A stretch of DNA of 64,000 nt from positions 4,978,251-5,042,250 of the forward strand of contig OZ245783.1 of the NCBI GenBank assembly GCA_965227875.1, in the 5' to 3' direction. The notes under the pieces were generated by a model. It ran no database searches. It was not told the DNA's origin and worked only from the letters and a program-made list of their open reading frames with translations. The translations under genes and the position numbers were made by a program. This document shows positions 3,042-19,801 of the stretch, one piece after another (the stretch's first letter is position 1; every line of letters starts with the position of its first letter). This stretch comes from Hyphomicrobiales bacterium (GTDB lineage: Bacteria > Pseudomonadota > Alphaproteobacteria > Rhizobiales > JAJFHC01).

Positions 3042-3066
3042 AACGTGCCGGGATGGCGGGAGTTCC
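3042..3066 (-). promoter_or_regulatory. EcfG-type promoter, GGAAC-N16-CGTT (perfect), upstream of dps
   Basis: Plus strand reads AACG (3042-3045), 16 nt, GTTCC (3062-3066), which is GGAACtcccgccatcccggcaCGTT on the minus strand. It lies about 120 nt upstream of the dps ATG. Confidence 0.7.
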
Positions 3067-3419: not shown

Positions 3420-3455
3420 CCGTCAGACGTAATTACCGTTCGATCCAGGACGAAA

Positions 3456-3488
3456 ACGGCTCGGGTTTCAGACCCGGGCCGTTTTTTT
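3456..3488 (+). terminator. Rho-independent terminator
   Basis: cggctcgggt-ttcag-acccgggccg hairpin followed by TTTTTTT. Confidence 0.7.
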
Positions 3489-3693: not shown

Positions 3694-4248
3694 CTAGAGT
3701 GCGGCGATGCGCGACAGAACGGTTTCCGAAGTCGCGTCCGGTCCGTACTCGTCCTCCGACTTGATGTCGAGGCGCTTGGCGAGTTCGACACGCGCCCGGC
3801 TGACACGGCTCTTGATCGTACCCATGGCCACGCCGCAGATCTCGGCGGCTTCTTCATACGAGAAACCGGATGCGCCCACGAGGACGAGTGCCTCGCGCTG
3901 GTTGTCCGGCAGTTCGGCCAGCGCCTTCTTGAAGTCGCGCAGGTCCATGTGCCCGTCCTGGTGCGGGTGAACGGCGAGTTGTTCGGAAAAACTGCCTTCC
4001 ACGTCCTGGACTTCGCGGCGGCGTTTCCTCACCTCGGAAAAGAAATGGTTTCGCAGGATGGTGAAGAGCCAGGCCTCGAGGTTGGTGCCCTCCTTGAAGG
4101 ATCCGATGTTGGCCCAGGCCTTGACGATCGCCTCCTGGACGAGGTCGTCGGCGCGGTCGCGGTTCCCGGATAACGAGACCGCAAAGGCACGCAGTCGAGG
4201 TACGGCAGCGATGATGTCCCGCTGCAGGGACTCTGACACTTTGCTCAC
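3694..4248 (-). CDS. ecfG: ECF sigma factor, EcfG (GSR sigma; RpoE2/SigT type)
   Basis: Region 2 DLVQEAIVKAWANIGSFKEGTNLEAWLFTILRNHFFS. Region 4 LPDNQREALVLVGASGFSYEEAAEICGVAMGTIKSRVSRAR. GTG start overlaps the nepR stop (GTGA). Divergent from phyR. Confidence 0.9.
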   Translation of the reverse strand: MSKVSESLQRDIIAAVPRLRAFAVSLSGNRDRADDLVQEAIVKAWANIGSFKEGTNLEAWLFTILRNHFFSEVRKRRREVQDVEGSFSEQLAVHPHQDGHMDLRDFKKALAELPDNQREALVLVGASGFSYEEAAEICGVAMGTIKSRVSRARVELAKRLDIKSEDEYGPDATSETVLSRIAAL

Positions 4249-4681: not shown

Positions 4682-5491
4682 ATGCATGCCGCTGAAGAAA
4701 TCGCAGTTCATATCCCGTTCCTGCGCCGCTATGCCCGCATACTGACCGGCTCCCAGAAAAGCGGGGACACGTATGTCACAAGCCTTCTGCAGGCGATGGT
4801 CGAACAGAAGGTTCAGATCGACGAGCAGTTTTCCGCAAGGGTGGACGTCTACAAGGCCTTCACCGACTTCTGGCAGCCTTTGAACCAGGGCGTGATCTCC
4901 GACGCCGGCATCCCCAGTGACGAGGATGCGAACGTCGACAGGCGCATCGAACAGCTTGCCCCCGCCCCCAGGCAGGCCTTCCTTCTGACATCCGTCGAGG
5001 AATTCACCGAAGAGGAAGCCTGCGCCATACTGGGTGTGTCGGAAGACGAACTCGCCAAGCTTCTCGACAAGGCCGGCGAGGAAATCGCCCGCCAGGTCGC
5101 AACGGAGATCCTGATCATCGAGGACGAGCCGATCATCTCGATCGAGCTCGAGAACCTCGTCAGGTCGCTTGGGCACGGCGTGGTCGGCACGGCGCGCACG
5201 CACAGCGAAGCGCTCCAGGTCATCGAAACCCGCAAACCAGGCCTCGTCCTCGCGGACATCCAGCTCGCCGACGGCAGTTCGGGGATCGATGCTGTGAACG
5301 ACATCCTGCACAAGATCAACCTGCCGGTGATCTTCATCACCGCCTATCCCGAGCGTCTCCTGACGGGTGACCGTCCCGAGCCGGCCTTCCTGATCACCAA
5401 GCCGTTCCGCGAAAACTCGGTGAAGGCCGTGATCAGCCAGGCCCTTTTCTTCGACGTGAAGGCGGGCGAACCGCTTTCCGTGGCGTCCTGA
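4682..5491 (+). CDS. phyR: PhyR anti-anti-sigma response regulator (sigma-like N-domain plus receiver)
   Basis: N-terminal ECF-sigma-like domain (IPFLRRYARILTGSQKSGDTYV...) and C-terminal REC domain (ILIIEDEPIISIELENLV...LVLADIQLADGSSG...ITAYPE). Confidence 0.93.
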   Translation: MHAAEEIAVHIPFLRRYARILTGSQKSGDTYVTSLLQAMVEQKVQIDEQFSARVDVYKAFTDFWQPLNQGVISDAGIPSDEDANVDRRIEQLAPAPRQAFLLTSVEEFTEEEACAILGVSEDELAKLLDKAGEEIARQVATEILIIEDEPIISIELENLVRSLGHGVVGTARTHSEALQVIETRKPGLVLADIQLADGSSGIDAVNDILHKINLPVIFITAYPERLLTGDRPEPAFLITKPFRENSVKAVISQALFFDVKAGEPLSVAS

Positions 5492-5836: not shown

Positions 5837-7042
5837 TTGCCGCAACGGCGCCCGACCCGGGCGTCACAGTCCGCCGGGGTGTTTCCCCCGGGACCGTTTG
5901 ACCAAATCCGTGGCTGCTCCGTGACACGCAAAGACGATCAATTCGCTCTCCCCCCGAAACAGGCTGTCGGAAGCAGCCGGTTGGAGAGCTTTGATCAGCG
6001 CCTCAGGGATTTGAACGAACACGTGGATCTCGCCATACGCGGAACGAACGTCAGCGTATTCGGCCAGGACCTCGATCTCCGATACACCTGGATCCGCAAC
6101 CCACTCGTGGGCTTCGAACGCGAACAGATGCTGGGCAAGTCGGACGCGGAACTCTTTTCCCCGTCCGTCGCCGCCGCGCTGACCCGTGTCAAACGGGCCG
6201 CCATCGACAGGAACGAGACACAGTTTGCTGAAGTTGAGATGTATCACGACGGAAAACATCGCTGGTTCGAGCTCTGGGCCGACCCCGTCTCTTCGCAGAC
6301 GGGTACGGTCGAGGGCCTTGCATGCGCCGCCGTCGAGATCACGTCCCGAAAGCAGGACGAGGAGCAGATGCGCACCCTCCTGCTGGAACTCAATCACCGG
6401 AACAGGAATCTCCTGTCCGTCATCGAAGGCATCGCACGACAGACCGGTCGTGACTCCGGCGACATCAAGAATTTTCTCCGAAGGTTCAGCGGAAGGCTTC
6501 ACAGCCTGTCGATCACGCAGCTCCTCCTCACGGAAAGCAACTGGAAGGGCGCGGGCATGCGGGCCCTGCTCAAGAAGCAGATCAAGGGCGTGGACAATGT
6601 CGACCTCTCCCGGTTCACCTTTCACGGTCCCGATATCGTCGCTGGTCCCAATGCGACCCAGTATCTTGGTCTCGCCATTCATGAACTGACCAACAACGCC
6701 CTCCAGCATGGCGCCCTGTCCGCCGCGGAGGGGACGGTGACCGTCACGTGGAAGTACTCGTCCGGCGCGCCGGATTCGCCGGAAAGACCGGGGATCGAGT
6801 TCCACTGGAAGGAAACCGGCGGCCCGAACGTTTCGCCACCTACGGAAAAGCGCTACGGAAGATCCATCCTGGAAGCGATCCTGCCGCGCTCCCTGAGTGC
6901 AAGTTCGACCCTGATCTTCGGTGGCGATGGCGTCTCCTTTTCCGCCTTCATCCCGGTGCGAGAACTCCATATCTCGGCTGAGCGAATCGTCGAGCTGGAA
7001 ACCGAAGACACGGGCCGGTCCCGCTCGTCCGACGCGGACTGA
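5837..7042 (+). CDS. PAS-domain HWE/HisKA_2-family sensor histidine kinase (candidate PhyR kinase)
   Basis: H-box LLELNHRNRNLLSVIEGIARQT and N-box LAIHELTNNALQHGAL, with a PAS-like N-terminal half. The start is uncertain (TTG 5837, GTG 5921 or TTG 5981). Confidence 0.8.
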   Translation: MPQRRPTRASQSAGVFPPGPFDQIRGCSVTRKDDQFALPPKQAVGSSRLESFDQRLRDLNEHVDLAIRGTNVSVFGQDLDLRYTWIRNPLVGFEREQMLGKSDAELFSPSVAAALTRVKRAAIDRNETQFAEVEMYHDGKHRWFELWADPVSSQTGTVEGLACAAVEITSRKQDEEQMRTLLLELNHRNRNLLSVIEGIARQTGRDSGDIKNFLRRFSGRLHSLSITQLLLTESNWKGAGMRALLKKQIKGVDNVDLSRFTFHGPDIVAGPNATQYLGLAIHELTNNALQHGALSAAEGTVTVTWKYSSGAPDSPERPGIEFHWKETGGPNVSPPTEKRYGRSILEAILPRSLSASSTLIFGGDGVSFSAFIPVRELHISAERIVELETEDTGRSRSSDAD

Positions 7043-7064
7043 AGCGCCGCCCCGCCGCGGTTCA

Positions 7065-7089
7065 GGAACCATTCGGCCCGCTTCACGTT
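7065..7089 (+). promoter_or_regulatory. EcfG-type promoter, GGAAC-N16-CGTT (perfect)
   Basis: GGAAC at 7065-7069 and CGTT at 7086-7089, 51 nt upstream of the ATG at 7141. Confidence 0.75.
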
Positions 7090-7140
7090 GTCAAGTATCC
7101 CGTCCGAAAGACGCCTCGGGACAACGTAAAGGAGACCACC

Positions 7141-7515
7141 ATGAAAAAGTTTCTCATGACGACCGCCACCGTTGCGCTGTTTGCGCTTTCGGTCCCGGCA
7201 CACGCCAACGAGCAGTGCACGACACCCGACGAAGCCGCCAAGATGACGGAAACGGACGCCACGGCGAACCAGGACGCGTCCGCCCAGGCTTCCGCCTCGC
7301 AGGAAACCGAGACGGCAGGGACCTCCGCTGAAGCCGAGGCGTCGGTGAACGCCCAGGCTTCCGCCGAGGCCGAAACGCCCGACAAGGTCGTGGACGAGAT
7401 CGTCGAGAATGCCAAGGAAGCCGAAGACGGGACCAAGGTCGCCTCGACCGGACCGGCAAAACCGGTTGAAAACTGGTTCGGCTGTCCTCCCGAAGGCAAG
7501 GCCACGACCGGCTGA
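7141..7515 (+). CDS. Exported acidic low-complexity protein (unknown family)
   Basis: Signal peptide MKKFLMTTATVALFALSVPAHA and an A/E/T/S-rich body. AAGGAG RBS. Confidence 0.7.
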   Translation: MKKFLMTTATVALFALSVPAHANEQCTTPDEAAKMTETDATANQDASAQASASQETETAGTSAEAEASVNAQASAEAETPDKVVDEIVENAKEAEDGTKVASTGPAKPVENWFGCPPEGKATTG

Positions 7516-7624
7516 CCGCGATTGCGGCCTATCCCCGCGCCCGGCGAATGTACTCGCCGGGCGACCGCGGCCCGAGAGGCGCGCGGATTCTACGTACGTC
7601 CCACCCCCTTATTATCCAGAGCTC

Positions 7625-8986
7625 ATGAACGATCACACTGGCGCCCGGAACGAGCTGGGCGACATTCTTGCATCCGTCGAAGACCGCAATCCGCACCAGC
7701 CCGAATTTCTCCAGGCGGTCCGGGAAATGGGCGCATCGGTTGCCGACTGGTATCTTGAACAGGCGGACCTGGTTGAGGCCCGCATATTCGAGCGCCTGAC
7801 GGAACCCGACCGCGCCATTCAGTTTCGCGTGGTCTGGGAAAACGACGACGGACAGCTCGAGGTCAACCGCGGGTGGCGCATCCAGTTCTGCCAGGCGCTG
7901 GGGCCTTACAAGGGTGGTCTGCGCTTTTCCGGAAGCGTCGATGAAAGCGTCCTGAAGTTTCTTTCTTTCGAGCAGACGTTCAAGAACGCCCTGACCGGCC
8001 TGCCCATGGGCGGGGCGAAAGGCGGTTCCGACTTCGACCCCAAAGGACGAAGCACCGGTGAAATCACGCGTTTCTGCCACGCGTTCATGACCGAACTCTT
8101 TCATCACATCGGCCCGGACAAGGACATTCCTGCCGGCGACATCGGGGTCGGCCCGGACGAGATAAGTGCCATGTTCGGCCACTACTTGAAGCTCACCCGA
8201 ACCTGGAACGGCGCCCTGACGGGCAAGGGCTGCCGTTTCGGTGGCAGCGCCGAACGCACCGAAGCGACCGGATATGGCTGCGTCTATTTCTGCGAAGAGA
8301 TGCTGGGCCATCACGACAAGTCCCTCGAAGACAAGAGAATAGCGATATCCGGAAGCGGCAACGTGGCTCTTCACGCGGCCCAGAAAGCCTGCTCGAAGGG
8401 AGCGAAAGTGGTCACCATGAGCGACTCCGGTGGGTTCATATTCACCGGTGACGGTCTTTCGAAGGAGCTTCTCGACGAACTCCACGAAGCGAAGACCGTA
8501 CAGAAGAAGCGCCTCGAGGAGTTCGCCGCGGATCACAAGGACCTGGAGTTCCACGAGGGCGATGCGCCATGGTCGGCCGAGTGCGATATCGCCATGCCCT
8601 GCGCCACGCAGAACGAACTCGACGATGACGCTGCAAGGCAGCTTGTCGACAACGGCGTTATTGCCGTCTGTGAAGGGGCGAACATGCCCGTGACGGCAGA
8701 CGCCGCGGACGTGTTCCGCGAGCATCACATCCTTCATGCGCCGGGCAAGGCGTCGAATGCCGGCGGCGTCGCGGTCAGCGGCATGGAGATAAGCCAGAAC
8801 GCCTTGCGCCAGTCATGGTCGTTCGAGGAGGTCGACGAGAAGCTCACGCGGGTCATGGCCAACATCCACCGTCAGTGTGTCGAAGCCGGTCCGAGCGGTG
8901 GAGATCGTGTCGACTACGTCAGGGGCGCCAACCTAGCAAGTTTCCAGAAAGTCGCGAAAACGCTGGCATCGTTCGGGCGTTTCTAA
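7625..8986 (+). CDS. gdhA: NADP-specific glutamate dehydrogenase
   Basis: Internal M73 of ORF 7409..8986. Motifs GPYKGGLRF, LPMGGAKGGSDFDPKG, DIPAGDIGVG, GSGNVA and ANAGGVAVSGMEISQN. Confidence 0.93.
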   Translation: MNDHTGARNELGDILASVEDRNPHQPEFLQAVREMGASVADWYLEQADLVEARIFERLTEPDRAIQFRVVWENDDGQLEVNRGWRIQFCQALGPYKGGLRFSGSVDESVLKFLSFEQTFKNALTGLPMGGAKGGSDFDPKGRSTGEITRFCHAFMTELFHHIGPDKDIPAGDIGVGPDEISAMFGHYLKLTRTWNGALTGKGCRFGGSAERTEATGYGCVYFCEEMLGHHDKSLEDKRIAISGSGNVALHAAQKACSKGAKVVTMSDSGGFIFTGDGLSKELLDELHEAKTVQKKRLEEFAADHKDLEFHEGDAPWSAECDIAMPCATQNELDDDAARQLVDNGVIAVCEGANMPVTADAADVFREHHILHAPGKASNAGGVAVSGMEISQNALRQSWSFEEVDEKLTRVMANIHRQCVEAGPSGGDRVDYVRGANLASFQKVAKTLASFGRF

Positions 8987-9002
8987 AATAATGATTTTTT
9001 TT

Positions 9003-9027
9003 GGAACCATTATCGCCCTCACGAGTT
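9003..9027 (+). promoter_or_regulatory. Candidate EcfG-type promoter, GGAAC-N16-AGTT (one mismatch)
   Basis: GGAAC at 9003-9007, preceded by a T8 run, and AGTT at 9024-9027. It begins 17 nt after the gdhA stop codon. Confidence 0.35.
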
Positions 9028-9032
9028 TTCCT

Positions 9033-9143
9033 GATGTGCCAGCGGATGACGTTATCCCCCCTCCCCCCTCGAACGGTGTTCGCCGGCACATCTGAATCAT
9101 TCAGATACCCTCTTGCCCCGGCGACCGCGCCGGGGCATTTTTT
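9033..9143 (+). ncRNA. Candidate ~110-nt sRNA with an 18-nt C-rich loop (GsrN/'cuckoo'-like), ending at the gdhA terminator
   Basis: P1 pairs gtgccagcg (9036-9044) with cgccggcac (9081-9089). An inner cgtt/aacg stem closes the loop AUCCCCCCUCCCCCCUCG (9054-9071). P2 is tctga-atcat-tcaga (9091-9105). P3 is the terminator at 9115-9143. This is a prediction only. Confidence 0.3.
9115..9143 (+). terminator. Rho-independent terminator
   Basis: gccccggcg-accg-cgccggggc followed by ATTTTTT. Confidence 0.75.
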
Positions 9144-9158
9144 CCGGCCCTCAGCAAC

Positions 9159-9824
9159 ATGACGAACGGTGATCACGAAACCGGCTCGATGCGGTTCCTG
9201 CTGAGGCGGGAGACGCGAAAGGTGCATGCCGCCCTGGACGCGATGCTTGCCCGGCAGGGCATGTTTTCCTCGCTCGGAGCCTACCTGCACTATCTCCACG
9301 TCCAACACGACGAGTTCCTGTCCTACGAAGGACAGGCCGGCAAACTGTCCGCCGAACTTGGACTGCACTGGTGGCCCGGATCGGTCCGTTCGTCTCTCAT
9401 CCGGGACGACATTGACGGCTTGACCCCGGAAAGTTCGAACGCCGGCAGCCCGCGGCGAACCGGAGAGGACTGCACCTCGGGGGCGACCGGACTTCCGGAA
9501 TTCGCGGGGCGCAGCTATGTCATGGAAGGCTCGCAGCTCGGCGGGCCGTTTATCCGGAAAATGCTTCGGAAGTCGGACGTTCTGGACGAGGATGGGTGCG
9601 CGTTTCTCATGTGGACCGGCACGAACGACAACAACTGGCAGCGATATTGCGGCTGGCTGGACACCCTTCATCTGGCGGAGCTTGAACAAGAGCAGGCAAT
9701 ACATGCCGCACACGAGACTTTCGAGCGCTATATTGACCTCTTCGACGGTATGCGCGAGACAGAAACGACATCGAGGTCGCTTTCACCGCGTCCCGATCGC
9801 GATTTGACGGCAAATGTATCGTAG
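9159..9824 (+). CDS. bphO: Heme oxygenase (biliverdin-producing, BphO type)
   Basis: MRFLLRRETRKVHAALDAML (proximal-His helix signature). About 220 aa. Lies directly upstream of the bacteriophytochrome gene. Confidence 0.8.
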   Translation: MTNGDHETGSMRFLLRRETRKVHAALDAMLARQGMFSSLGAYLHYLHVQHDEFLSYEGQAGKLSAELGLHWWPGSVRSSLIRDDIDGLTPESSNAGSPRRTGEDCTSGATGLPEFAGRSYVMEGSQLGGPFIRKMLRKSDVLDEDGCAFLMWTGTNDNNWQRYCGWLDTLHLAELEQEQAIHAAHETFERYIDLFDGMRETETTSRSLSPRPDRDLTANVS

Positions 9825-9932
9825 TTAAAAGACAGGGGGCAGATTGGCTGTTAGTCAGTTGACAGGAGAGCGTGCGCTGTCACGGGCATCGGCCGTCGCA
9901 GCTCCTGAAAATAAGAACAATTCAGGATCCAT

Positions 9933-12533
9933 GTGATGCAGACCGCACCGGAACAGGCACCAGACGTAACCGACTGCGACCGGGAACCCATTCACATTCC
10001 CGGTTCGATCCAGCCGCACGGCGCCCTCGTGGTGTTCTATCTGCCGGACTGGACCGTCGGGCATGCCTCGGAAAACATAGACAGGTTTCTGGACGAACCG
10101 ATCGACACCCTGACCGGTCGGGAAATAGGGAGAATCTTCCCGCCGGACCTCGTTCATTCCGTCAGGAATGCGCTTCAGGAAGCCATGGCGACCTCCCGCG
10201 CCGCGCGCATTTTCGATGCCCGGCTGCTCAACGGGTCGCCGGTGGACCTGGGGGTGACGTGCGATACGAACCGGGTGATCGTGGAAGTCGAGCCCCGCGC
10301 GGAAGACCGCCCGGAAATCGACATGCTGAATACGACCCAGCAGAAGTTGAGCCAGCTGCGGGCAGTGTCTGATCCCAATAAGTATTTTCGGCTCGTCGCC
10401 GGCCAGGTCCGCAGTATGACCGGCTACGACCGCGTCATGATCTACAAGTTTCACGAAGATGACACGGGCGAAGTCATCGCAGAGGACTGCCGGCCCGGGC
10501 TCGAGTCCTACCTGAACCTGCGCTATCCCGCCTCCGACATCCCCAAACAGGCCAGAGACCTCTACACGAAACAGTGGCTCCGGATCATACCGGATGCGGA
10601 CTACGCTCCGGTGCCGATCAGACCCGAGAAGAACCTCAAGGGCGAACCCATTGATCTGGGAAACGTCTCGCTGCGCAGCGTATCTCCCATCCACGTCCAG
10701 TACCTCAAGAACATGGGGGTGAGCGCCACCCTCACCCTGTCCCTGCTGGAAGGAGACAGGCTGTGGGGGCTCGTCGCCTGCCATCATTACGCGCCCAAGA
10801 ATATACCCGTCGATGTCAGGACCGCGCTCGAGATCTACAGCCAGCTCGTGTCCATGCAGATCGAATCGCACGAACGCGCCCTCCAGCTTTCGCTGGCTGA
10901 AGACGCAAGGAGCATTCACGACCAGATCGTCGCGACGCTCGACCCGCGAAACCCGCTGCATTCGGAACTGCACAAGCAGGCGGACCTTCTCATGAAGCTC
11001 GTTCCCTCCCACGGCCTCGCCGTCTGGGTAGAGAACAACCTGCTGATTTCGGGCTCCGTACCTTCCGAGAAGACACTGAGCGACATCCGTCTATTCCTGA
11101 ACGCGAGTTCCACGGGCATCTTCTCGCTCGACGAACTAGGCAAGCTGGTGGACCGGCAGAACCGTGACGACAAGAATGTCTGCGGAATGCTCGCCATTCC
11201 CATTTCGCGCACGCCGCGCGACTACATTCTCTTCTTCAGACAGGAGGTCGCGACGACGGTTTTCTGGGGCGGGAATCCGGACAAGGCGGCATCGGTCGAT
11301 CCGAAAAGCGGACAGCTCAGCCCACGCAACAGCTTCGAGAAATGGAAACAGGTCGTCCGCGGCAAATCTCAGCCCTGGTCCGACATCGAGCTGCAGGCGG
11401 CCAGCCTGCTTCGCGGATCGATGCTCGAAGCGGTCGTGCGTCGGCAGGACATTGTCGTCCAGGAAAAGAGCACCACCTCCCAGCGCCAGGATGTCCTCAT
11501 CGCCGAACTCAATCACCGGGTGAAGAACATCCTCAGCCTGATTTCCTCGCTGGTGACGCAGGCCGCCGACACCGCGCCGCCTCTGAACGAGTTCGTGAAG
11601 TCCGTGCAGGGGCGCATCGCGGCGCTTGCCAAGGCCCATGACCAGGCCATTACGGGTGGCGCGCAGGGGATTCCCCTGAGCGAACTGGTTGCGGCTGAAG
11701 TCGCGCCCTGGGTTGCCGATCGGAGTTCGAAATGGTCGGTGGCCGGTCCGTCGGTCGGCCTGAATGCCGCGGCCGCGCAAACCATAGCCCTCGTCCTCCA
11801 TGAACTGGCTACGAATTCCGCGAAGTACGGGGCCTTCGGCACCGAGGGAGGAAAGCTCGACGTGACGTGGTCACGTCTGTCCGAAGGCGAACTGGAGCTT
11901 TCATGGCGTGAACATGTCGCGAAGCTGATCACGCCGCCGACCACCAAGGGTTTCGGCACCACCGTCATTGAACGTACCGTACCTTTCGATCTGGGTGGCC
12001 GGGCGATGATCGAGTTCCGCAAAAACGGCCTCCAAGCCGTCTTCATCATTCCGGCGAAGTTCGTGGTGTCGCTCGATGTACCGGTCGGGGGCAGCGACAC
12101 GGGTGAGATTCACGCCTCTCCTGTGCTCGAGGACGCGGAACCTGTCGCCGACCTCAGCGGGGCAACGATCCTGCTTGCCGAGGACGAACTGCTGATTGCG
12201 ATGGAGTGCGAGCATATGCTGCGCCAGGCCGGTGCTGCCGACGTGAAGGTCGCACCCGATATCGAGACCGCCCTCTCCTTCGTCGAAGACGTGCCCGCGC
12301 TCACGATCGCCATTCTCGATATCAACCTCGGCGAAAGCGACAGTGAACCAGTCGCCAACGCACTTCTCGAACGCGGAATTCCGTTCATTTATGCGAGCGG
12401 GTACACAAAGTCGGCCGAAGGAGATGCGACCAGCCACGGCAAGCCTGTGGTGGTCAAGCCCTACCAGCAGAAAGATCTGCTTGTCGCCATCGGCCAGGAA
12501 CTGTTCAGCGGCGATAACGACAATGATGCATGA
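9933..12533 (+). CDS. bphP: Bacteriophytochrome: PAS2-GAF-PHY photosensory core, HWE histidine kinase and C-terminal receiver
   Basis: N-terminal Cys15 in DCDREPIHIPGSIQPHG. GAF motifs RYPASDIPKQARDLY, SPIHVQYLKNMGVSATL and LWGLVACHH. PHY tongue WGG...PRNSFEKW. HWE H-box LIAELNHRVKNILSLISSLV. N-box HELATNSAKYGAF. REC domain ILLAEDE...AILDINLG. Confidence 0.92.
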   Translation: MMQTAPEQAPDVTDCDREPIHIPGSIQPHGALVVFYLPDWTVGHASENIDRFLDEPIDTLTGREIGRIFPPDLVHSVRNALQEAMATSRAARIFDARLLNGSPVDLGVTCDTNRVIVEVEPRAEDRPEIDMLNTTQQKLSQLRAVSDPNKYFRLVAGQVRSMTGYDRVMIYKFHEDDTGEVIAEDCRPGLESYLNLRYPASDIPKQARDLYTKQWLRIIPDADYAPVPIRPEKNLKGEPIDLGNVSLRSVSPIHVQYLKNMGVSATLTLSLLEGDRLWGLVACHHYAPKNIPVDVRTALEIYSQLVSMQIESHERALQLSLAEDARSIHDQIVATLDPRNPLHSELHKQADLLMKLVPSHGLAVWVENNLLISGSVPSEKTLSDIRLFLNASSTGIFSLDELGKLVDRQNRDDKNVCGMLAIPISRTPRDYILFFRQEVATTVFWGGNPDKAASVDPKSGQLSPRNSFEKWKQVVRGKSQPWSDIELQAASLLRGSMLEAVVRRQDIVVQEKSTTSQRQDVLIAELNHRVKNILSLISSLVTQAADTAPPLNEFVKSVQGRIAALAKAHDQAITGGAQGIPLSELVAAEVAPWVADRSSKWSVAGPSVGLNAAAAQTIALVLHELATNSAKYGAFGTEGGKLDVTWSRLSEGELELSWREHVAKLITPPTTKGFGTTVIERTVPFDLGGRAMIEFRKNGLQAVFIIPAKFVVSLDVPVGGSDTGEIHASPVLEDAEPVADLSGATILLAEDELLIAMECEHMLRQAGAADVKVAPDIETALSFVEDVPALTIAILDINLGESDSEPVANALLERGIPFIYASGYTKSAEGDATSHGKPVVVKPYQQKDLLVAIGQELFSGDNDNDA

Positions 12534-19577: not shown

Positions 19578-19801
19578 TGAATCACAGGAAAATCAAACAA
19601 TTGCCACGATTGGGACGCCGTTCCCCTCAGGATCACGATTCGGACGGCGGCCTGCCGGCAGCCGCGATGGCCCACAAGAAAACCGGATGCAGAGCACTGC
19701 ATCCGGTTCCTGAGGTACGGCCACCCCTTCACGAGGTGGACCTGATTGCGGGTCGCGTGTTTCCTGTCAGTCTTCACAGGAAACGCGTCGGGGAAAGGCC
19801 G

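Follow-up and report, generated by a model that had tools for sequence, protein, structure and literature searches.

A candidate GsrN-like, EcfG-type small RNA between gdhA and the bphO–bphP operon of a Hyphomicrobiales bacterium

Between the genes gdhA and bphO, the 64,000-nt stretch of contig OZ245783.1 from a Hyphomicrobiales bacterium that we analyzed at its full length (hereafter, the window) carries at 9003–9143 an element in which a promoter-like site for the stress sigma factor EcfG is followed by three predicted hairpins, the first exposing a C-rich loop and the last being an intrinsic terminator. This arrangement raises the question of whether the element gives rise to an RNA that acts in trans in the general stress response (GSR), serves in cis as the leader of the downstream genes, or is only the 3′ end of the gdhA transcript. 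Based on its anatomy, its predicted fold and its pattern of change across relatives, we consider it quite likely that an RNA element of one kind or another, transcribed and functional, lies at 9003–9143; that its RNA works in trans as a small RNA dependent on EcfG is a proposition that we regard as evenly balanced. We suggest that the element is probably a new, sequence-unrelated addition to the EcfG-dependent small RNAs of the GsrN-like class, and that it is best read as doubling as the gdhA terminator region and as the obligatory leader of bphO–bphP.

gdhA, which belongs to the NADP-specific glutamate dehydrogenase equivalog (NCBIfam, 645.8 bits), ends with a TAA stop codon at 8984–8986, and the GGAAC of the promoter-like site begins 17 nt past it. 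We distinguish the following features around and downstream of this site, with all pairing as predicted by RNAfold:

8995–9002, plus strand: T8 tract directly upstream of the −35; a possible UP-like element.
9003–9027, plus strand: EcfG-type promoter-like site, with GGAAC at 9003–9007, a 16-nt spacer at 9008–9023 and the −10 AGTT at 9024–9027 ((G)AGTT, 9023–9027).
9033–9036, plus strand: predicted transcription start zone, 6–9 nt past the −10, where hairpin P1 begins.
9033–9092, plus strand: 5′ hairpin P1, with an outer stem, a 1-nt bulge, a middle stem, a 2x2 internal loop and an inner CGUU/AACG stem.
9054–9071, plus strand: 18-nt single-stranded C/U-rich loop AUCCCCCCUCCCCCCUCG (probability of being unpaired, 0.98); proposed seed for G-rich targets.
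9090–9106, plus strand: hairpin 2, with an AUCUGAA/UUCAGAU stem and a 3-nt loop.
9107–9113, plus strand: single-stranded linker ACCCUCU (probability of being unpaired, 1.00); may serve as a second pairing site or contact Hfq.
9114–9143, plus strand: intrinsic terminator, with a 10-bp stem (9 G–C pairs) at 9114–9137, the loop ACCG and U6 at 9138–9143; end of the gdhA mRNA and of the proposed small RNA.
9144–9158, plus strand: fast-evolving 15-nt spacer from the U-tract to the bphO ATG, with no Shine–Dalgarno motif and no space for a promoter.
9034–9162, plus strand: 42-codon open reading frame (ORF), with its AUG at the predicted +1 and its TGA overlapping the bphO ATG (ATGA); the basis of a rival reading.

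The start zone was placed by the usual spacing between an EcfG −10 and +1. In the fold of 9030–9145, P1 pairs 9036–9040 with 9085–9089 and 9042–9047 with 9078–9083, the inner stem joins CGUU at 9050–9053 to AACG at 9072–9075, and the centroid structure reaches 9033/9092. The site at 9114–9143 has both the G+C-rich hairpin and the U-tract of a rho-independent terminator and is the sole strong terminator-like site from the gdhA stop to bphO; weaker matches, of 5 pairs, all lie beyond 9240. The sequence-only reading that preceded this analysis had described the T8 tract, GGAAC-N16-AGTT and the 17-nt offset from the gdhA stop at coordinates that proved exact to the base; the three-hairpin fold that it drew on paper, with an exposed C-rich loop and a terminator common to gdhA and a small RNA, was confirmed by RNAfold and by a terminator scan.

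The predicted fold is much more stable than those of shuffled sequences. Specifically, the minimum free energy (MFE) of the whole RNA is −49.1 kcal/mol compared with −30.4 ± 3.3 for the shuffles (z −5.75), and none of 200 shuffles was as good. P1 folded alone reaches −24.9 kcal/mol (z −4.08; 0 of 200 shuffles as good) and, therefore, the fold signal is not owed to the terminator alone. The C-rich sequence CCCCTCCCC has exactly one exact occurrence in the window, in the loop of P1; allowing up to one mismatch, 13 sites were found against 28 expected, indicating that such tracts are otherwise depleted in the window. Because the G–U pairs 9045–9080 and 9047–9078 (and, in the relative L237 introduced below, 9048–9077 and 9049–9076) are valid on the plus strand only and the U-tract lies on this strand, the RNA is placed on the plus strand. 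An RNA from the minus strand was rejected: it has no U-tract, and the G–U pairs would turn into A·C mismatches. Also rejected was an upstream hairpin, AAUAAUG...CAUUAUC, which is disrupted in L237 by A9009T.

To follow the element through evolution, relatives of the locus were collected from protein searches and from read and contig mapping. The lineage is thinly sampled: the locus was found in only two other lineages, giving about three informative lineages in total. Protein searches identified one bphO relative at 99% identity (L238) and two at 78% (L237 and L239), and mapping added a variant of ~97% identity (X5), a point variant (X8) and a further instance of the L237 type (X11). The protein search with bphP returned a 100% match standing for a cluster of at least 90% identity, the next best match being at most 42% identical. 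The best relatives retrieved via gdhA were 57% identical, came from unrelated taxa and were not usable; a bphO protein search of genome contigs returned no relative, and the plasmid collection gave distant gdhA matches only.

The sequence-only reading had made its proposal depend on conservation in related genomes, and the element is indeed kept in both other lineages. Between the window and L237, the RNA body is 89.5% identical while the third codon positions of four flanking genes are 68–74% identical. The L237 RNA body differs by nine substitutions and a 3-nt insertion in the loop, and seven of the nine substitutions as well as the insertion fall on unpaired positions (internal loop, C-rich loop, hairpin-2 loop, linker and terminator loop). 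In the P1 stem, 9078 G>A turns a U–G into a U–A pair, and 9080 U>G opens a G·G mismatch while 9049 A>U closes the neighboring internal loop. Both changes in hairpin 2 lie in its loop (UCA>UUG, 9098 and 9099) and leave the stem intact; the linker CCCUCU is invariant, the sole linker change being 9107 A>G; and the terminator stem is invariant, with changes in its loop only (CC>UU, 9125 and 9126). The C-rich loop of L237 is 21 nt long, AUCCCCCUUCCCCUCCCCUCG, and C/U-only inside. Accommodating these changes, the L237 RNA keeps the same shape at almost the same stability (MFE −48.5 compared with −49.1 kcal/mol in the window), and so does P1 after three substitutions (−24.3 kcal/mol, z −3.5). Random mutants carrying nine substitutions averaged −38.9 ± 5.7 kcal/mol, and only 4.7% of them were as stable as the L237 RNA. 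In L238, a single change, A9034G, keeps the pairing with U9091 as G–U. The X5 variant differs at 7 positions in 255 nt, of which none falls in the 111-nt RNA body (probability 0.018).

The promoter-like site shows a corresponding pattern: its −35 and −10 are unchanged in all lineages, while the 16-nt spacer took seven changes, five in L237 (9009, 9014, 9017, 9020 and 9021) and two in X5 (9015 and 9021). The probability that all seven would fall within the 16 spacer positions out of 25 is 0.64^7 = 0.044. The T8 tract reads A+T7 in the L237 lineage, and the other EcfG-type sites in the window lack such a T-run. By chance, 0.28 matches to GGAAC-N16-AGTT itself would be expected per window, and at least one was present in 25 of 100 shuffles; support for the promoter thus comes from GSR context and conservation and not from motif statistics. 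The element had been proposed to adjoin the GSR core, and this is borne out by a phyR gene at 4682–5491 (PhyR family, NCBIfam, 351.7 bits against a cutoff of 240), which ends 3.5 kb upstream of the element, by an extracytoplasmic function sigma factor gene of the ecfG type at 3694–4248 (NCBIfam), and by 13 canonical GGAAC-N15-18-CGTT sites in the window compared with 2.9 expected; HWE kinases are also encoded in this island. All 13 canonical sites lie within the first 30 kb (3000–30000), among them a divergent pair at 3066 (minus strand) and 3135 (plus strand) near a Dps-like gene.

Two further sites lie on the gdhA side of the element. An EcfG-type site at 7065 precedes a 124-aa ORF without a family match, which is followed by gdhA, and gdhA itself may be EcfG-controlled from this site. 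A sigma-70-like CTGGCA-N18-AATAAT at 8963–8992 (plus strand) overlaps the gdhA stop; it was found once against 0.5 expected, which is not significant alone, and both its hexamers are kept in L237 despite the dead gdhA there. Possible roles are that of an additional, housekeeping promoter driving this RNA and that of a portion of an A/T-rich UP element.

The fate of gdhA in the L237 lineage bears directly on the simplest alternative, namely that 9003–9143 is only the gdhA 3′ untranslated region (UTR), a terminator or stabilizing 3′ structure in which GGAAC...AGTT matches by chance. Such an account gains from the terminator being the only strong one downstream of gdhA, from a promoter motif that alone is statistically not significant and from a −10 that departs from the 13 canonical sites. 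In L237 and L239, however, gdhA is a pseudogene (L237:2181–2590) that has been reduced to an 82-aa middle fragment with a premature TAG, large deletions and a stop codon changed from TAA to CAA; its remnant is about 70% identical to the window, and conservation is 91% over the ~35 nt that directly precede the element. Yet behind this decayed gene the element is intact at the 89.5% identity given above and with its fold kept, which argues against a mere gdhA 3′ UTR, as do the invariant −35 and −10 next to a variable spacer and the X5 variant without any change in the RNA body. We therefore hold this explanation to be very improbable.

The ATG of bphO at 9159, which the sequence-only reading had overlooked, is only 15 nt past the U-tract. 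Because the first 10 bphO codons change between the window and L237 in the manner of coding sequence (five synonymous and two non-synonymous codons), this ATG is the real bphO start. The 15-nt spacer before it is the fastest-evolving stretch, having taken five changes among the lineages (X5: 9146 and 9151; X8: 9154; L237: 9150 and 9154), and it has room neither for a sigma-70-like nor for an EcfG-like site. With no space for a promoter, bphO–bphP would be transcribed through the terminator, starting either at the promoter at 9003–9027 or at the one at 7065 that serves the gdhA operon. Read-through supply is thus probable, and we suggest that the 9003–9027 promoter probably feeds bphO–bphP in this way.

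These observations permit a reading in which the element is a cis-acting 5′ leader of bphO–bphP, encoding a heme oxygenase and a bacteriophytochrome HWE kinase. The EcfG-type promoter would serve bphO–bphP, the hairpins and terminator would form an attenuator setting or regulating the share of transcription that arrives at bphO, and the short RNA would be a by-product with no function in trans. The position of the bphO ATG, the coding-type evolution of its early codons and the lack of room for another promoter all speak for it, and so does the same layout in L237 with its dead gdhA, where transcription of bphO–bphP would have to come either from this promoter or from one lying further upstream. 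Folding argues in the other direction. In step-wise folds the three hairpins behaved as separate modules and an antiterminator did not appear; the terminator still forms when the 5′ strand of P1 is masked, and with the terminator masked its 5′ half gains nothing beyond a 4-bp local stem. We therefore rejected attenuator- or riboswitch-type switching, for which mutually exclusive terminator and antiterminator folds are absent in step-wise folding. Because no antiterminator is predicted and the terminator forms regardless, a terminated ~110-nt RNA would be the default product, with bphO–bphP fed by leak-through. Moreover, a 10-bp stem with nine G–C pairs followed by U6 would be odd as the only route into an operon, and it is not obvious what a plain leader would do with a long C-only loop held open by a 19-bp helix. 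The distant bphP homologues retrieved have no comparable leader and no upstream EcfG site, which is uninformative because these homologues are only about 40% identical and their loci are not syntenic. On balance, we regard an exclusively cis-acting leader as unlikely, if worth serious consideration.

A different use of the same transcript is suggested by the ORF at 9034–9162. Here, the RNA would be a leaderless mRNA from the AUG at 9034, and a 42-residue, proline-containing leader peptide would be translated across the terminator and coupled into bphO, which has no Shine–Dalgarno motif; the trailing ribosome would block terminator formation, resembling pyrBI-type attenuation. Several coincidences speak for it: the AUG is exactly at the expected +1, 6 nt past the −10 (with GUG there in L238), the 3-nt size of the loop indel leaves the 42-codon frame open in both lineages, the bphO start, itself lacking a Shine–Dalgarno motif, is overlapped by the stop, and none of five spacer substitutions makes a stop codon. 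On the other hand, substitutions are distributed 3/4/4 over the codon positions and only two of nine are synonymous, a PP motif becomes PSP, a 42-codon open frame at 60% GC is not rare (roughly 0.28 for one given frame, by our estimate), the AUG has no Shine–Dalgarno motif and would be sequestered with 9034–9036 paired in the centroid fold of P1, and the 42-codon product has no family match. All the favorable points are, in addition, post hoc coincidences from two lineages, and we consider a translated leader highly unlikely. The two ideas could also be joined. In such a scheme one EcfG-driven transcript would yield both a terminated, GsrN-like trans-acting RNA and a leaderless 42-codon mRNA that suppresses termination and delivers ribosomes to bphO via ATGA, and stress sigma factor, translation status and red/far-red sensing would be connected in a single feedback loop through BphP, which we take to be an HWE kinase of the PhyR-feeding type. 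We mention this scheme as a long shot.

Returning to the proposed trans-acting small RNA, the closest known counterpart is GsrN of Caulobacter crescentus, an Hfq-stabilized RNA of about 100–106 nt with a SigT/EcfG promoter and an intrinsic terminator, in which a 5′ hairpin with six tandem cytosines in an exposed loop pairs with G-tracts, e.g., in the katG leader, and which has a second exposed region (Tien et al. 2018, eLife, PMC5869019). BLAST homologues of gsrN were found within the Caulobacteraceae only; outside this family, GsrN-like genes were predicted from an EcfG site, a position near the GSR locus and an exposed 5′ C-rich loop, and homologues outside C. crescentus typically lie beside the ecfG–nepR–phyR core (PMC5869019). 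All three of these sequence features are found at 9003–9143: an EcfG-type site with an exact −35, canonical spacing and A in place of C as the first base of the −10, GSR proximity, and an exposed 5′ C-rich loop accompanied by a terminator. The element also resembles GsrN in its length of about 100–110 nt, its intrinsic terminator, its 5′ hairpin exposing cytosines (six tandem in GsrN, 6+6 here) and a second exposed region further 3′. It differs from GsrN in its −10 AGTT, in an extra middle hairpin, in a longer loop broken by U (CCCCCCUCCCCCC), and in its position between a stop and a start codon, with a terminator common with gdhA and 15 nt from the bphO ATG. The likeness to GsrN is thus one of architecture; no sequence homology was detected by an Rfam search of the window, in which gsrN itself was not compared.

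C-rich loops also characterize other stress-linked RNAs. The cuckoo/CcsR RNAs are defined by the motif CCUCCUCCC, repeated in the loops of several hairpins, and depend on RpoHI/HII, not on EcfG. With these RNAs, as with alpha-r14 (NfeR1), anti-hemB of Burkholderia and sX13 of Xanthomonas, the window element shares a C-rich, CCUCC-containing loop resembling an anti-Shine–Dalgarno sequence. A kinship with cuckoo/CcsR, which the sequence-only reading had brought up, did not hold: unlike these RNAs, the element lacks CCUCCUCCC in its loop, has one C-rich hairpin only and matches no Rfam family. At gathering threshold there was no Rfam match in the whole window, and a permissive search gave only sub-threshold matches driven by terminators or C-tracts; anti-hemB (RF02837) scored 22.0 bits compared with a threshold of 49.5, resting on the C-rich stretch and the terminator, sX13 scored 15.4 bits compared with 50, and cuckoo and alpha-r14 were not listed even at E ≤ 10. 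With respect to genomic position, the enterobacterial DapZ and MicL are promoter-bearing 3′-UTR small RNAs that end at the terminator of the mRNA. MicL is also named in PMC8103513. The window element is like them in having its own promoter, here of the stress-sigma type, near the end of the upstream coding sequence and a terminator common with the upstream mRNA. It is unlike them in that its promoter lies past the stop codon and not inside the coding sequence, a downstream operon abuts the terminator, and the element does not need the upstream gene for its retention, that gene being a pseudogene in one lineage.

To look for the same architecture elsewhere, we scanned 80 PhyR loci. In 41 loci of Methylobacterium, Methylorubrum and Microvirga (family loci L160, L163, L166, L168–L174, L187 and L199–L236), an unannotated, putatively EcfG-driven C-rich RNA with no Rfam match was found:

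About 10850–11340 of each locus (e.g., L199:10966–11064), minus strand: Methylobacteriaceae unit of ~90 nt, ~250 nt beyond phyR.

The unit consists of a canonical EcfG promoter, a CCGGCC/GGCCGG stem enclosing CUGGUCCUCCCCGCAUUCCCCUUGUGCAU, a linker and an intrinsic terminator. Its 5′ domain is nearly invariant and its terminator has seven pairs with two-sided changes; it looks like the GsrN-like RNA of that family. With the window element it has in common a stem a few nucleotides past the predicted +1 that encloses C-rich single strands (CCUCCCC and UUCCCCUU in the family), a linker, a terminator and a GSR locus, and many of the family promoters have a T-rich run just before GGAAC, as does the window element. 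The differences are in placement, the family being convergent to phyR and the window element 3.5 kb away and co-directional, and in structure, the family having two small internal hairpins and the window element one long helix. Homology between the two was rejected: a covariance model of 36 family sequences (R1) scores 9088–9144 at 20.8 bits, aligning hairpin 2 and the terminator only and leaving P1 and its loop unaligned. On this comparison, the window element and the Methylobacteriaceae family share a likeness of design, not demonstrable descent. The best matches of R1 in the window are at 19676–19748 (minus strand, 26.6 bits) and 3433–3488 (plus strand, 21.8 bits), and both have the look of terminators belonging to small EcfG-driven genes, not of C-rich RNAs. 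A marine metagenome-assembled genome (MAG) whose PhyR is 55% identical has, at L159:12142–12250 (plus strand) and about 1.4 kb from phyR, a unit with an EcfG promoter, the C-rich GUCCCCUCCUCAACGG and a terminator.

Pairing of the loop in cis was considered and rejected for two G-rich sites, GAGGCGGGAG in bphO (9204–9213) and GGGGG past bphO (9835–9839), neither of which is conserved in L237. The second lies in the bphO–bphP spacer (9825–9935), which is 87% identical to L237; its G5 run (GACAGGGGGCAGA) is complementary to the loop and reads GGAGA in L237.

Searches with parts of the element itself added little. The exact 18-mer of the loop had 76 matches in genome contigs, none extending past about 20–23 nt, consistent with chance or unrelated sequences; two further conserved segments gave zero matches in metagenome and genome contigs, and the sequencing runs X13–X16 gave nothing on the element. 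In run X4, short low-depth contigs are identical to the window at 6800–7531, 8369–8713, 9517–10256 and from 10606 onward and leave 8714–9516 uncovered, a pattern in which patchy DNA coverage and expression are indistinguishable. An 18–20-mer, (T)ATCCCCCCTCCCCCCTCG, recurs exactly in ~20 Acidobacteriota loci among L081–L156 (Sulfotelmatobacter and Acidobacteriaceae MAG contigs), twice 25 nt apart in L116 (6288–6330), and in two copies 22 nt apart in a Planctomycetaceae MAG contig (L146, 2853–2892); this recurrence suggests a repeat family there that is unrelated to the window.

Several observations weigh against a trans-acting, EcfG-dependent small RNA. The promoter motif is by itself not significant, its −10 reads AGTT where the 13 canonical sites of the window have CGTT, and a site directly ahead of bphO would fit a cis-acting leader equally well. 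The excess of conservation is modest because the island has two further intergenic regions that are 86–87% identical to L237; on these comparisons, the element is constrained, though not dramatically beyond other regulatory spacers. Conservation and covariation of the hairpins had been named as a test of the proposal, and the first part stood, the stems being kept and substitutions avoiding or compensating them, but no two-sided compensatory base pair was found among the informative lineages. A duplex scan of the window for targets of the loop returned no convincing conserved target and no site at a start codon. The reciprocal covariance model built from the window element (R2) reached no score higher than 21.2 bits when run on the 80 PhyR loci, and on such models the absent homology to the Methylobacteriaceae family counts against the proposal as well. 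Finally, in the search of sequencing runs the locus was found only in contig sets of the DNA type and in no RNA run.

Taking these points together with the evidence from fold, context and pattern of change, our working hypothesis for the element is as follows. Its own EcfG-type promoter would start an RNA of ~110 nt near 9033–9036 that ends at the terminator at 9143. The RNA would fold co-transcriptionally into three independent hairpins, of which the first keeps an 18–21-nt C/U-only loop single-stranded, and this loop, perhaps also the CCCUCU linker, may pair with G-rich mRNA leaders or Shine–Dalgarno regions by analogy with GsrN. The GSR would thereby gain a post-transcriptional arm. At the same time, the same sequence would form the 3′ end of gdhA transcripts, and leaky read-through of the terminator from the same promoter would supply bphO–bphP mRNA.

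An RNA of this kind would be no surprise to specialists; GsrN-like RNAs are already known. If transcribed as proposed, the element would add, from a sparsely sampled marine lineage, a sequence-unrelated example to the idea, from PMC5869019, that the GSR of alphaproteobacteria regularly has an EcfG-driven small RNA with a C-rich loop next to its core regulators. Its placement is unusual in that its terminator is common with gdhA and that it abuts a bacteriophytochrome operon lacking its own promoter. The element and the Methylobacteriaceae family jointly suggest that architecture and seed chemistry, and not common descent, may define the class, and the locus would offer a simple system for asking how one stress promoter balances a terminator that is strong, a small RNA and the sensor-kinase operon downstream of them.

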